Shown: positions 667 through 16,624 of the stretch, in pieces
Layout: each line of letters starts with the position of its first letter
Position numbering within the stretch: position 1 is the stretch's first letter
Assembly: GCF_016026235.1 (NCBI RefSeq)
Contig: NZ_CP065613.1
Origin: Escherichia coli
GTDB taxonomy: Bacteria > Pseudomonadota > Gammaproteobacteria > Enterobacterales > Enterobacteriaceae
Strand: one strand, 5' to 3'
Length of the DNA stretch: 64,000 bases
Position numbers and translations under genes: made by a program
Notes under the pieces: model-generated
Told to the model about the DNA's origin: nothing
The model's database searches: none
The model's input: the letters and a program-made list of their open reading frames with translations, nothing else

Positions 667-1188
667 TCAGCACGCGATATCGAGAGTCAACTGCAGTTGC
701 TCGCGCCAGTACTCGACATTTGCTTCAATAACCGGCTTATCCCATCGCCAGCGAGCCATCTCTCTTGCCCCATTGCTGGCTTTTGATTTCCGGTCATCGC
801 GAATGCGACATGCTTGCTCATATTTCTGCTGCTCAGTCAGTTCACCGCGAAGCAGACTATCAATGTGCAGGTCGCACCATACGGAGAATTTCGGATCGCA
901 CCATCTTGCAAAGGCAACTGATAACTTTGGATGCTGCCATGTTCCGCCGCCCCTGTCCTTTCGTGCCTTGCTTGTTTTTACATACCCGGAATCACGGGTA
1001 TGTAGAATTTTCGATGGTTCACCTGAATAAACCTCATCCAGAGCTCTAACGTATTCGAGAGTTTCAGCGTTGGACAACCAGTGATCCAGACGCTTCCCGA
1101 AACGTTTTGCAATATCAGTGGCATTAATCCAGCCATCAGTATTGAAGCGGATAGGTTCGCCTTTGTAATTCAGTGGAACGATATTCAT
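667..1188 (-). CDS. KilA-N domain antirepressor-like protein
   Basis: 173-aa ORF following Rz on the late strand; N-terminal KilA-N-like segment (NYKGEPIRFNTDGWINATDIAKRFGKRLDHW). Confidence 0.6.
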   Translation of the reverse strand: MNIVPLNYKGEPIRFNTDGWINATDIAKRFGKRLDHWLSNAETLEYVRALDEVYSGEPSKILHTRDSGYVKTSKARKDRGGGTWQHPKLSVAFARWCDPKFSVWCDLHIDSLLRGELTEQQKYEQACRIRDDRKSKASNGAREMARWRWDKPVIEANVEYWREQLQLTLDIAC

Positions 1189-1390
1189 AGCGTCTTACCT
1201 TTTAGAAAGATGAGCCTGTTCGCACAGAAAAGCCGCCCCGAGATGGTCGCCACCATATACGGCAGTTCTCAGGCTCAGCTTTCTGAAAGACTCGGGATTG
1301 TTACGCGCTGCGATGCGCGGTTTACTGCGGACATATAAAAGCCCCGCAAGTGCGAGGCTCATTAAATTGACTTTGTGATTTGCAAAAAAA

Positions 1391-1828
1391 TTATTTCAGG
1401 CATTGCGTCCTGATGTATTCCTGCAGGTAGTTAACCTGCGCGGTTATCCTGTCGATTCCACTTCGGAGACGGTAATAATTGAGTTCAGCATCTGCTGTAA
1501 GTCCTGGGCTTTCTCCATAGCCCATGCTGCTGGCTCCGGTCGTTGACTTTGCACAGGTGGCGGCGACTTGCAGGCGCTTACGACCAGCAGAAACATCAGC
1601 ACGGAGACTTTCGATAGTCGCGTTAGCATCAGCAAGCTCCTTTGTGTATCTGGCGTCGAGTTCTGCTACATCACGTTGACGCTTCTGCATATCAGAGATG
1701 ATGGATGTGGCCTTATCGCGCTGCTCTTTGTAGGTAATGGCGTTATCACGGTAATGATTAACAGCCCATGACAGGCAGACGATGATGCAGATAACCAGAG
1801 CGGAGATAATCGCGGTGACTCTGCTCAT
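1391..1828 (-). CDS. Rz: Rz i-spanin (inner-membrane spanin)
   Basis: Strong resemblance to lambda Rz ([34 protein letters not shown]...); start overlaps endolysin stop; track ORF begins 5 codons upstream. Confidence 0.85.
1444..1635 (-). CDS. Rz1: Rz1 o-spanin lipoprotein embedded in the +1 frame of Rz
   Basis: ORF nested inside Rz; hydrophobic signal ending in lipobox-like VVSAC followed by proline-rich segment, as in lambda Rz1. Confidence 0.6.
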
Positions 1829-2358
1829 TGATCTATCCCCCAACAGGCTAATGCGCTTTCCTGGTCACGACGAATAACCTGTCCATAGCAGTTATTTGAA
1901 CGTATGCGGCAATCGCGCCCAACATCTTTTATCCACCAGCGAATCGCCTCGCATGCGCCCTTACGATCACCGGCATTCAGCCGCTTATAAAACGTCGACG
2001 GGAAACACTTACCGGGGCCAATGTTATAGGGGCAAAATGACGCTATACCCGCTTTTTGTGGTTCGGTCAGTGGTACTTTAATATTGCGCTCCACCCATGC
2101 CAGCGCCTTATCACGTTCAATGGCGTTAACCTGGTCGCATTTTTCCTTCGACAGCTTCATTCCCGGTATGACAGGCTTACCATCCACCATTGTGGCACCA
2201 CGACAGATGGTCCATATGCCAGAACCATCACGGTATGCCGTTGTGTGATTACCCTCTTTTTCGTTCAGAAACTGGTCAAGTATCTGGGGAGCAGACGCGC
2301 CTGCGGCAATCAGCGCCAGAACAGCAGCCGACAGGCCGTATTTGATTTTTGCGCTCAT
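1825..2358 (-). CDS. R: SAR-type endolysin (T4-lysozyme-like muramidase)
   Basis: N-terminal Gly/Ala-rich weakly hydrophobic SAR segment ([18 protein letters not shown]) followed by E-x8-D-x5-T catalytic spacing ([16 protein letters not shown]). Confidence 0.85.
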
Positions 2359-2423
2359 GGATATTTATCAGGATTTATCGGCAACAAATAACGAGCCAAC
2401 TTATATACGCCTTTTAAGATAAG

Positions 2424-2984
2424 TCAGCCCCAGCTGGATCCAGTCATCAGGCTCTTTCTTAAAGGGGGAGTATTGAAATCACGAAGAAGAGCCTCCCGCA
2501 CCGCAGCATCCATGTCTGCACCACTGGCAAGTGCTTCAATCTCTGCCGCCACCTGCAAATACCCCATGCAACGGCCAATGCGTTTCATAACTCTGGTGTT
2601 TTCGTCTTTCAGGCATCTGATAGCGAGATTAATAATTTTCAGGCAGTGATGATGCGATGCCCGGACAGGTTTTCCGTTCTCATAAACGACGAACTCACCC
2701 TCTTCACAGGAAACCCTGAAAGGCCGACGGGGTTCCTGGTCTTTATCCGGTGCAGACGCAATAAAATCACTTTTATGCTCTTCCTCTCCGGCACTGTTAA
2801 CCGTAATGACGTACTCAGGCCGCAGGTAAGCCGCCTCTTTTTCTGACAATGCGGCCGGTAAAAACTTTTCCTGCAAAAACTTCATAAAAGTCTCGTGAGC
2901 GACTTTGTGGCAGTAATCGTAAATCGCCGCATAATGCTCATCGCGGCGTTTGTTTTCATCTTCAGAACTCACCAACGCCGACAA
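2424..2984 (-). CDS. hypothetical protein inserted between holin and endolysin
   Basis: 186-aa ORF (TTG or GTG start) between S and R; no recognisable domain; a 27-aa coupled ORF with good SD lies just upstream. Confidence 0.45.
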   Translation of the reverse strand: MSALVSSEDENKRRDEHYAAIYDYCHKVAHETFMKFLQEKFLPAALSEKEAAYLRPEYVITVNSAGEEEHKSDFIASAPDKDQEPRRPFRVSCEEGEFVVYENGKPVRASHHHCLKIINLAIRCLKDENTRVMKRIGRCMGYLQVAAEIEALASGADMDAAVREALLRDFNTPPLRKSLMTGSSWG

Positions 2985-14755: not shown

Positions 14756-14815
14756 CGTAAACGAAATTAACCATGACGCAATTAAATAAGGCAAGCCGAA
14801 TACATCAGGAGGACC

Positions 14816-15004
14816 ATGAACATTTATTTCAGAATAGTTATATCACTGGCAATTATCGCATGTATTTACGGATTAATCGTTCCGGCCCTCATATCAATGA
14901 AGGATACGGTAGCAGTGATTTCTGGCTTTGCTCTGGCGTGTCTGACCCCGCCCTGCATTTATGCCATTTATAAGGGTCTTTCTTTCCCCGGGAGGGAAAA
15001 ATGA
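14816..15004 (+). CDS. small membrane protein (two predicted TM helices)
   Basis: 62-aa hydrophobic ORF overlapping the start of the SPFH gene (ATGA). Confidence 0.5.
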   Translation: MNIYFRIVISLAIIACIYGLIVPALISMKDTVAVISGFALACLTPPCIYAIYKGLSFPGREK

Positions 15005-15831
15005 AAAAAACAATTGCGCTTGTTTTCGCGGTCAGTCTGGCTGTCTTCGGACTTGTAGGTTGCGATCGCGTTGAACCAGGTAATGTGGGTATCAAAGTCA
15101 ACAAACTGGGCGACGACAAAGGTGTCGGTGAGGTGGTCGGTGTTGGTCGCTACTGGACTGGCTGGAATACTGAAGTTTACATTTTCCCGACCTTCAAGCA
15201 AATGAAGACCTACGATGAACCGTTCAGTTTCCAGATGAGTGACGGCACAACCATCGGCTATCACATCGGCGTGGCCTACAAAGTTGATCCATCCAAAGTT
15301 ACCACGGTGTTTCAGACTTACCGCAAAGGCGTGGATGACATTACCAACACCGACCTGCGCCAGAAGATCGCCGACGCACTCAATCGGCTGGCCAGCAAAA
15401 TGACCACCGACAAATTTATTGACGGCGGTAAATCTGAATTACTGGATGCCGCTCTAAAAGACATCCAGGAAGAAATGACACCCATCGGTATTCAGGTAAT
15501 GAGCCTCTCATATGTGGGTAAGCCAGAGTACCCACCAACCGTTATCGACAGCATTAACGCCAAAGTCACGGCAAACCAGAAAACACTGCAACGCGAGCAG
15601 GAAGTTAAACAACGCGAAGCAGAAGCCAACATGCTGCGTGCAGAAGCTGCCGGACAGGCTGATGCGATTCGCACAAAAGCCCAGGCCGAAGCCGATGCAA
15701 TTCGTTTACGCGGTGAAGCTCTGCGCCAGAACCCCGGTGTTATGGAGCTGGAAGCCATCAATAAATGGAACGGCACACTGCCGCAGTACATGACCAGCGG
15801 TGCCAACACACCATTTATTCAGGTTAAGTAA
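15001..15831 (+). CDS. SPFH/band-7 (stomatin/prohibitin-like) domain lipoprotein
   Basis: Signal peptide with lipobox LVGC; SPFH-like core; Ala/Glu/Gln-rich coiled-coil C-terminal region. Confidence 0.8.
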   Translation: MKKTIALVFAVSLAVFGLVGCDRVEPGNVGIKVNKLGDDKGVGEVVGVGRYWTGWNTEVYIFPTFKQMKTYDEPFSFQMSDGTTIGYHIGVAYKVDPSKVTTVFQTYRKGVDDITNTDLRQKIADALNRLASKMTTDKFIDGGKSELLDAALKDIQEEMTPIGIQVMSLSYVGKPEYPPTVIDSINAKVTANQKTLQREQEVKQREAEANMLRAEAAGQADAIRTKAQAEADAIRLRGEALRQNPGVMELEAINKWNGTLPQYMTSGANTPFIQVK

Positions 15832-15874
15832 TACATATGCCCGGTATTACACGCCGGGCTGTCTGGAGATAAAA

Positions 15875-16624
15875 ATGAATACTGTAACCATCAACAACAA
15901 ACAGTTTCCGGTAATCGAATATCGCGGTCAGCGCGTGGTGACGCTGGCGATGATTGATGAAGTGCACCAACGCCCGGACGGAACAGCGGGACGCAATTTC
16001 CGCGAAAACAAGTCTCGTCTTATTGAAGGGGAAGACTACTTCGAATTAGGTTCCGACGAAATTCGTCGACACCTCCCTGACGGTACTTTCTCAAAATTTG
16101 CAGCAGCAGGAATTGTACTGGTCGAATCCGGTTATTTGATGTTGGTGAAATCCTTCACCGACGATCTGGCCTGGCAGGTTCAGCGCGAACTGGTTAACAG
16201 CTATTTCCGAACTCACGCGCCGCTGACGGAAATGGAGATGATCGCTGCAATGGCCGCCGATGCCGTTCGCCAGCAAAAGCGCCTGAGTCATGTTGAAAAG
16301 AAGATCGAAACGGTCACCAAAGCTGTGGAGAACATCAAACGCGGCACAATGCGCGCCGGATATGTCGGTTACCGCCAGGTGGTAGCCAAAAGTGGAATGA
16401 GTGACGCCAAGTGTCGGAATCTGGTGAACGCATATCAAATTCCTACAGACACCCACGAATTCATGACTCCGGACGGTCTGTTGTCTCGCAGGGCTATCGT
16501 CGAGCTTGAGCCATTTATGGCGGCGTTCCACCAAATGATGTCAGAGGCTGAACCACGCGGCACACGCTGGTATCACCCGAAGATGGGGCTTTTCCAGGTG
16601 ATCGGATGGGAGGATAAAGCATGA
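15875..16624 (+). CDS. ORF6N/ORF6C-type antirepressor-like protein
   Basis: ATG at 15875 with SD GGAGA; C-terminal ~130 aa paralogous to the Rha-family gene at 9931-10644. Confidence 0.75.
   Translation: MNTVTINNKQFPVIEYRGQRVVTLAMIDEVHQRPDGTAGRNFRENKSRLIEGEDYFELGSDEIRRHLPDGTFSKFAAAGIVLVESGYLMLVKSFTDDLAWQVQRELVNSYFRTHAPLTEMEMIAAMAADAVRQQKRLSHVEKKIETVTKAVENIKRGTMRAGYVGYRQVVAKSGMSDAKCRNLVNAYQIPTDTHEFMTPDGLLSRRAIVELEPFMAAFHQMMSEAEPRGTRWYHPKMGLFQVIGWEDKA

Follow-up and report, generated by a model that had tools for sequence, protein, structure and literature searches.

The stretch of Escherichia coli DNA analysed here (64,000 nucleotides of contig NZ_CP065613.1, assembly GCF_016026235.1; hereafter the window) begins with a lambdoid prophage (1-20.6 kb) that is integrated beside mlrA and has a right arm of the phiP27/Shiga toxin-converting (Stx) phage type. 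By the Pfam matches of their N-terminal heads (KilA-N, Bro-N, ORF6N and, in two genes, Phage_pRha), five genes of this prophage belong to the mosaic KilA-N/Bro-N/Rha/ORF6N class of phage regulators (Table 1). The first-pass annotation of the window had listed four of them, at 667-1188, 9054-9878 and 9931-10644 on the minus strand and at 15875-16624 on the plus strand, and the KilA-N, Bro-N, Rha and ORF6N heads that had been read there were confirmed by Pfam; the fifth, a Rha-type gene at 8398-8760, had been missed. It had also been proposed that the last two of the four proteins have a C-terminal domain of about 130 residues in common, and this holds: the Rha-headed and the ORF6N-headed protein align without gaps over 131 C-terminal residues (100/131 identical, or 76%; 118/131 positives; BLASTP, E 1e-78), and in pairwise comparison their heads have no similarity to each other. 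The shared stretch, referred to below as the module, is present in exactly two copies in the window (tblastn), which lie in inverted orientation and bracket cro and cI, as had been described, at a distance of 5.9 kb instead of the approximately 5.6 kb given earlier.

The nucleotide identity between the two copies, which had been put by eye at 75-80%, was measured as 69.5% (273/393), with a longest exact run of 20 nucleotides, and the first, second and third codon positions are 80, 89 and 39% identical, respectively. The number of non-synonymous substitutions per site (dN) is 0.18, while the synonymous value (dS) is saturated (3.4 by LWL85, undefined by NG86). Such third positions, together with the saturated dS, point to old paralogues or xenologues and not to a recent duplication. 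The two modules are thus under strong purifying selection with saturated synonymous divergence, and they are poor substrates for homologous recombination. The N-terminal helix of the module is 56% identical between the copies and the globular part that follows it 86% identical.

The shared tail had been labelled ORF6C, a name that falls away, since Pfam gave no match on the module of either protein at E<=10. Individual Pfam scans of 49 module-bearing proteins listed neither ORF6C nor ANT, and the comparison of the module by hhalign with the tail of one protein bearing a partial ORF6C (PF10552), as well as with the tail of the Bro-N protein of the window, gave a probability of 0.5% in each case. 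The search of PDB sequences with the module profile returned only coiled-coil noise (E > 0.5). The AlphaFold (AF2) model, built from seven diverse members of the family (mean predicted local distance difference test score, pLDDT, 86), consists of a helix at residues 4-41, two short helices, a beta hairpin, a further helix and a small sheet, so that the module is predicted to be an acidic helix of about 40 residues followed by a basic winged helix of about 90 residues resembling those of MerR and the excisionase Xis. The residues K64 and R66 in the second helix of the helix-turn-helix (HTH) are invariant in the alignment of the seven diverse modules; the globular part is basic in 41/48 representatives (median isoelectric point, pI, 9.5), and the helix is acidic (median pI 4.9). 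The fold search against BFVD gave no match at E<=0.001, the best being a KilA-N protein of a Ralstonia phage (E 3e-3), and the one against AFDB50 returned family members only, named DNA-binding protein, Roi, ORF6N, Rha, KilA or Bro-N, with none named ORF6C or KilAC. The exhaustive HMMER scan of 1.84 billion cluster representatives found the module in 80 of them at E<=1e-3, situated C-terminally in the full-length hits behind a head of about 95-190 residues, with about 30 shorter hits being head-less or partial. The family belongs mostly to phages of Enterobacterales, and weak matches extend to Vibrio, Shewanella and Chromatium (AFDB50, tblastn). Judging by the model, the tail would represent an unnamed, rare helix-plus-winged-helix domain, which is the only mildly new element of this locus and, with its approximately 80 clusters, merits a family definition of its own.

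The same tail is carried by very different heads. Among the 49 full-length module proteins, Pfam recognised Phage_pRha in 19, Bro-N in six, AntA in four, and ORF6N and KilA-N in three each, and clustering added a Pfam-less head with nine members that is common to APSE-7 and the Klebsiella phage ZX1, so that the module is fused to at least six head types. The heads of the window Bro-N and KilA-N proteins, which have other tails here, cluster with heads that bear the module elsewhere. For 29 of 48 modules the nearest module has a different head, at module identities of up to 81% (KilA-N versus Rha, 81%; Bro-N versus the APSE-7-like head, 79%); however, nearest neighbours with the same head were also more frequent than expected by permutation (19 observed versus 9.2). 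In part, then, heads are passed on together with the module, but exchanges are frequent. The reverse swap is seen in HK97 Roi, whose head is 55% identical to that of the window Rha protein but whose tail is of the KilA-C type. Both findings, one tail behind several heads and one head before more than one tail, support combinatorial fusion. That heads are shuffled on one tail is a long-known principle (domain shuffling in this regulator class was reportedly described by Iyer, Koonin and Aravind in Genome Biology in 2002), and the present case is one of ordinary phage mosaicism.

Within the pR (cro-side) operon the Rha-headed module gene occupies the third gene region, and its product has 237 residues from the ATG at 10644 or 235 residues from the GTG at 10638. 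The GTG is the more likely start: the AAGGAG directly abuts the ATG and stands 6 nucleotides before the GTG, and the homologue in the RefSeq annotation of E. coli CFSAN029787, a 99%-identical relative (locus L001), has 235 residues. The protein matches the PHROG families 63 and 1726, named 'anti-repressor', and its tail PHROG 6610. Directly after its stop codon there is a GC-rich hairpin (9906-9926, GGCCGG-N9-CCGGCC) that scores, with its T-run, as a plus-strand terminator and may end antisense transcripts or work in both directions in the gap that separates the Rha gene from the Bro-N gene. The ORF6N-headed module gene belongs to the pL-side operon, where it comes after the gene of an SPFH-domain lipoprotein and has GGAGA 5 nucleotides before its ATG; its homologue in CFSAN029787 is named 'ORF6N domain-containing protein'. 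The Bro-N gene lies directly downstream of the Rha-headed module gene, and its product is 99.3% identical to an open reading frame (ORF) product of phiP27. Of the earlier description of this protein as Bro-N/KilA-C, the head stood, but the tail gave in Pfam only a weak match to ANT/KilA-C (PF03374; E 0.023, residues 169-249); over residues 117-265 it is 39% identical to a 'DNA-binding protein' of ICP1. The KilA-N gene, which had been counted in one arm with the other three, sits outside the early arm, in the late region after the lysis cassette, downstream of the holin, endolysin and Rz genes and behind a terminator-like hairpin, and in CFSAN029787 the same spot also holds a RelE/ParE pair. 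The NCBIfam scan yielded a sub-threshold Rha match only.

The fifth gene is the C-terminal part of a longer ORF (8398-9057, minus strand), for which Pfam gives Phage_ASH at residues 15-105 and Phage_pRha at residues 122-202 (E 4.7e-6); the GGAGG at 8773-8769 lies 8 nucleotides before its own ATG at 8760, and the 120-residue Rha-only product is 34% identical to phi80 Rha. Upstream of it and in the same orientation, within the 'Ash' part of the long ORF, there are two full-length Rfam matches, to an isrK-type Hfq-binding small RNA (sRNA) and to a C4-type antisense RNA (Table 1). The isrK RNA has its own terminator, seen as a terminator-like hairpin with a T-run at 8946-8933, and a weak promoter was read by eye at 9038-9010 (TTGATT-17-TACACT), just after the Bro-N stop codon. 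Also by eye only, AUUUGCAC was found both within the isrK hairpin and at 8811-8804 (31 nucleotides upstream of the GGAGG), and GUGCAAA in an unpaired stretch of the C4 RNA. The same RNA pair is situated in CFSAN029787 (10018-10205 of locus L001) inside its 317-residue 'Rha family' coding sequence (CDS). By its layout, the region 8398-9003 would represent an RNA-controlled cassette of the P1 immI or Gifsy-1 isrK-anrP type, and of the genes in this prophage only the small Rha gene bears the control hallmark of a true antirepressor. The Phage_ASH match (8743-9015 of the window) coincides with the isrK and C4 RNA genes, and the RefSeq calls of an 'ash family protein' or of a long 'Rha family' CDS in relatives (9399-10352 of locus L001) overlap both RNAs; some or many proteins annotated as 'Ash' may therefore represent a translated RNA locus.

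The comparison with known systems places these genes within the class delimited by Iyer, Koonin and Aravind: the heads are from exactly the same set, with alternative C-terminal modules and in temperate phages, and all four heads of the window are also found on the shared module elsewhere, but the shared tail matched, in the scans made here, none of ORF6C, ANT/KilA-C, ORF11CD3 and P22_AR. The Roi proteins of HK97 and HK022 have a Rha-type head that matches the window Rha protein at 55% identity over 117 residues, and relatives of the latter carry the database names 'Roi' or 'DNA-binding protein Roi'; however, the KilA-C-like tail of HK97 Roi has no match to the hidden Markov model (HMM) of the module, and Roi is encoded in the nin region, whereas the window gene stands between cro and the replication genes. 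In the P1 immI operon the order is c4 RNA, icd, ant. The P1-like phage D6 has in this order a C4 RNA, the a1b1 targets, icd and then a Rha-headed module protein (74% module identity), the C4 RNA and its c4-a1b1 targets being located upstream of icd at 20964-21170 of NC_050154 (1965-2171 of locus L007); the first 50 kb of D6 hold one module copy. This 'Ant' of D6, unlike the ANT/KilA-C-type tails recognised by Pfam, has the Rha-plus-module architecture, which indicates that the ant slot accepts unrelated architectures. The window resembles P1 immI and D6 in having a Rha-type gene behind a C4 RNA and differs in that the C4/isrK element precedes the small Rha-only gene and neither of the module genes, and in that no icd was noted in the cassette. 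In Gifsy-1, IsrK switches on the translation of the antirepressor-like AnrP, whose expression induces the prophage, and in S. dysenteriae orf45 is fused to anrP (PMC4825925). The window cassette is similar to isrK-orf45-anrP in its isrK with a terminator, the conserved stretch of about 140 nucleotides and the antirepressor-like ORF with a coupled start (PMC4825925), and it also has the S. dysenteriae-type fusion, the likeness being one of layout; however, its neighbours are the Bro-N gene and the replication genes and not an antQ gene. With phiP27 and the Stx phages the window has in common the Bro-N protein, a 95% identical module, the same adjacency of these genes and the similarity of DNA across the arm, but phiP27 has one module copy only, and the stx genes which Stx phages carry are absent between the tRNA and holin genes of the window.

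As for the origin of the pair, phiP27 and the Stx phages carry the Rha-headed module gene alone, without the ORF6N-headed one, and many E. coli prophages match the window only up to 15844, just before the ORF6N gene. A mosaic boundary is situated at about 15845, after the end of the SPFH lipoprotein gene. At least 80% of the region 8000-17500 is covered in only four of 5,426 complete E. coli genomes, and among the 55 phage records with the module at most two have it twice. The head swap did not happen in this genome, because synonymous sites are saturated, phiP27 lacks the ORF6N gene and the matches end at 15844; the earlier proposal that heads are shuffled in modular fashion onto a shared C-terminal domain is thus upheld for the family, with its at least six heads, and not for this genome. 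The two module genes were probably joined by mosaic recombination of phage arms and not by local duplication. The opposite reading, namely a recent duplication within the genome, or an inverted repeat kept alike by gene conversion, which would act as the substrate when the immunity region is inverted, can draw on the inverted arrangement of the modules around cI/cro and on the circumstance that an exchange within the module would presumably leave both reading frames intact. It is nevertheless very improbable in view of the nucleotide, third-position and dS values given above and the short exact runs, the dissimilar heads, the occurrence of each gene alone in other phages and the same orientation in those relatives that retain both. 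Recent duplication, gene conversion and inversion were accordingly rejected, the divergence of the two modules being too great.

As for the function, the labels 'antirepressor' and 'effector domain' come from annotation only. The exact LexA box (CTGT-N8-ACAG) has 0 matches in the 64-kb window, so that SOS-controlled antirepressors of the Gifsy/N15/186 type are not indicated; next to the two module genes Rfam found no RNA family and the promoter scan no promoter-like site upstream, so that the tight lysogen control that marks functional antirepressors (P22 Ant, P1 Ant, Gifsy GfoA/GfhA, 186 Tum), by a LexA box or by an antisense or small RNA of the c4 or sar kind, was found at neither of them. 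By their position both genes are inside CI-controlled operons. The best explanation as a whole, to which we give a probability of roughly 0.55, is that of mosaic regulator genes with an ancient shared module, acting as accessory early regulators. The module proteins would be made only once CI is removed, would pair or oligomerise through the helix, and, with head and module as two domains of the nucleic-acid-binding type, would reinforce the lytic programme after derepression without being the trigger of induction. DNA binding as the mode of action is a tentative part of this proposal, somewhat less probable than its opposite but favoured over repressor titration. It is quite unlikely, though conceivable, that the tail, as an undescribed domain family with an acidic coiled-coil helix, turns its at least six heads into a two-headed oligomerising DNA bridge, with the pR-made and pL-made copies hetero-oligomerising and thereby coupling the sites recognised by the heads; the two copies may instead have diverged to avoid hetero-oligomerising, because only 56% of the helix is identical as against 86% of the globular part. 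Some points weigh against the accessory-regulator explanation: the globular domain of the window ORF6N copy is neutral (pI 7.0), the neighbour-joining tree of the modules and the nearest-neighbour counts are unbootstrapped, and the position of the D6 Rha-headed module protein in the c4-icd-ant slot favours an antirepressor role at least for that homologue.

The main rival is the view that the module proteins are true antirepressors which bind CI-type repressors of their own or of co-resident heteroimmune prophages, speeding or spreading derepression, with the module as the repressor-binding or oligomerising effector. P22 Ant, the Gifsy antirepressors and phi24B Ant are precedents. The name 'anti-repressor' of the PHROG families 63, 1726 and 130 speaks in its favour, as does the D6 protein in the position of P1 ant. 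Full late expression of induced phi24B requires its Ant, the deletion of ant lowering late-promoter activity to about 30%, and P22 Ant was reported to act on lambda CI too, which makes a broad specificity possible (PMC3064807). However, no similarity to the ANT/KilA-C domain could be detected in the module, which looks, in the model, like a basic winged helix; the module genes have neither a LexA box nor an antisense-RNA element or own promoter-like site and, being in CI-repressed operons, cannot start the induction of their own prophage, whose CI in any case has its own autocleavage domain. Moreover, the globular domain is highly conserved among phages whose repressors are unrelated (of the lambda-CI type here and of the P1-C1 type in D6), as is not expected of an immunity-specific surface. 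On balance an antirepressor role is unlikely for the module proteins, if still a serious contender. Considerably less probable is the view that some or all of the genes are accessory ones of the moron type, which serve in defence or superinfection exclusion and do not regulate the phage itself. Its precedent is abortive infection by proteins with a KilA-N head, such as BstA, reportedly described in a preprint as a KilA-N-domain defence protein, and the KilA-N gene of the window, with its position after a terminator-like hairpin behind Rz and the RelE/ParE pair found there in CFSAN029787, would suit such a role. The PADLOC defence models gave nothing meaningful for four of the proteins (the best match was a stretch of 30 residues to PDC-S22, E 2e-6), and the two module genes do not occupy moron positions but lie within early operons.

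These findings leave the current picture of lambdoid phage mosaicism unchanged, and the value of the locus is mainly in annotation and in the choice of an experimental target. For these tails the profile matches give no backing to the names 'antirepressor', 'ORF6C' and 'KilA-C', and the small Rha gene behind the isrK and C4 RNAs is the starting point for work on induction or cross-talk.

The remainder of the prophage was mapped by PHROG matches (Table 1). The map of cI and cro, taken with the pL-like promoter, implies leftward transcription from pR and rightward transcription from pL in the window. The GDSM and VKR motifs are readable in the CI translation, the DNA of the right arm resembles that of phiP27 and Stx-converting phages, and in CFSAN029787 the integration site adjoins mlrA.

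Table 1. Positions and strands of features of the prophage in the window, with the matches or scans on which the assignments are based.
Feature	Position	Strand	Basis
KilA-N-head protein, 173 aa	667-1188	-	Pfam KilA-N 2e-23; ORF11CD3 0.021
Rz	1391-1843	-	PHROG
Endolysin	1825-2358	-	PHROG
Holin	3056-3271	-	PHROG
Four tRNA genes	3567-3874	-	Rfam
Q-like antiterminator	4074-4490	-	PHROG
DnaB-like helicase	4996-6387	-	PHROG
DnaC-like loader	6384-7271	-	PHROG
O-like initiator	7273-8187	-	PHROG
Rha-domain-only protein, 120 aa from ATG 8760	8398-8760	-	in frame with ORF to 9057
C4-type antisense RNA	8815-8902	-	Rfam RF01695, 80.1 bits (gathering score 45), full length
isrK-type Hfq-binding sRNA	8927-9003	-	Rfam RF01394, 61.8 bits (gathering score 50), full length
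Bro-N-head protein, 274 aa, GTG start, different tail	9054-9878	-	Pfam Bro-N 1.9e-20
Rha-head protein with shared C-terminal module	9931-10644	-	Pfam Phage_pRha aa 14-101, 2.4e-9
Shared C-terminal module, copy 1	9934-10329	-	tblastn, BLASTP, AF2 model
Cro-like repressor, first gene of pR-side operon	11129-11395	-	PHROG 35, 2e-20
CI-type repressor, S24 autocleavage domain	11523-12218	+	PHROG 4/6201; UmuD-like match aa 139-208
cI terminator	12230-12246	+	promoter/terminator scan
pL-like promoter, followed by leftward early genes	12282-12310	+	promoter/terminator scan
SPFH-domain lipoprotein gene, directly upstream of the ORF6N-head gene	15001-15831	+	
ORF6N-head protein with shared C-terminal module, 249 aa	15875-16624	+	Pfam ORF6N aa 13-93, 4.7e-15
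Shared C-terminal module, copy 2	16220-16612	+	tblastn, 76.3% identity to copy 1
Tyrosine integrase	19253-20539	+	

Several minor features were seen along the map. The tRNA genes sit between the genes of the Q-like antiterminator and the holin, the spot where Stx phages carry stx, and the gap from the tRNA genes to the holin gene is only about 300 bp, so that there is no toxin gene in it. Antisense between cro and the Rha-headed module gene there is a gene for a 97-residue protein of unknown function (10758-11051, plus strand; PHROG 4753, E 1e-48), annotated as a hypothetical protein in the RefSeq entry of CFSAN029787 and provided with its own terminator-like hairpin at 11058-11082, and this gene has the appearance of a moron placed within the pR operon. 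The pL-like promoter is followed first by the gene (12364-12858, plus strand) of a 164-residue HTH protein of PHROG 4836 ('CII-like regulator'); this stretch occupies the position of lambda N and is low in GC (about 40% versus about 50%). Between the leftward early genes and the integrase there is an IS3-family insertion element (17868-19072, minus strand; orfA 18734-19072, orfB 17868-18707), which is not present in CFSAN029787, while relatives are annotated with transposases of the IS600/IS911 family nearby.

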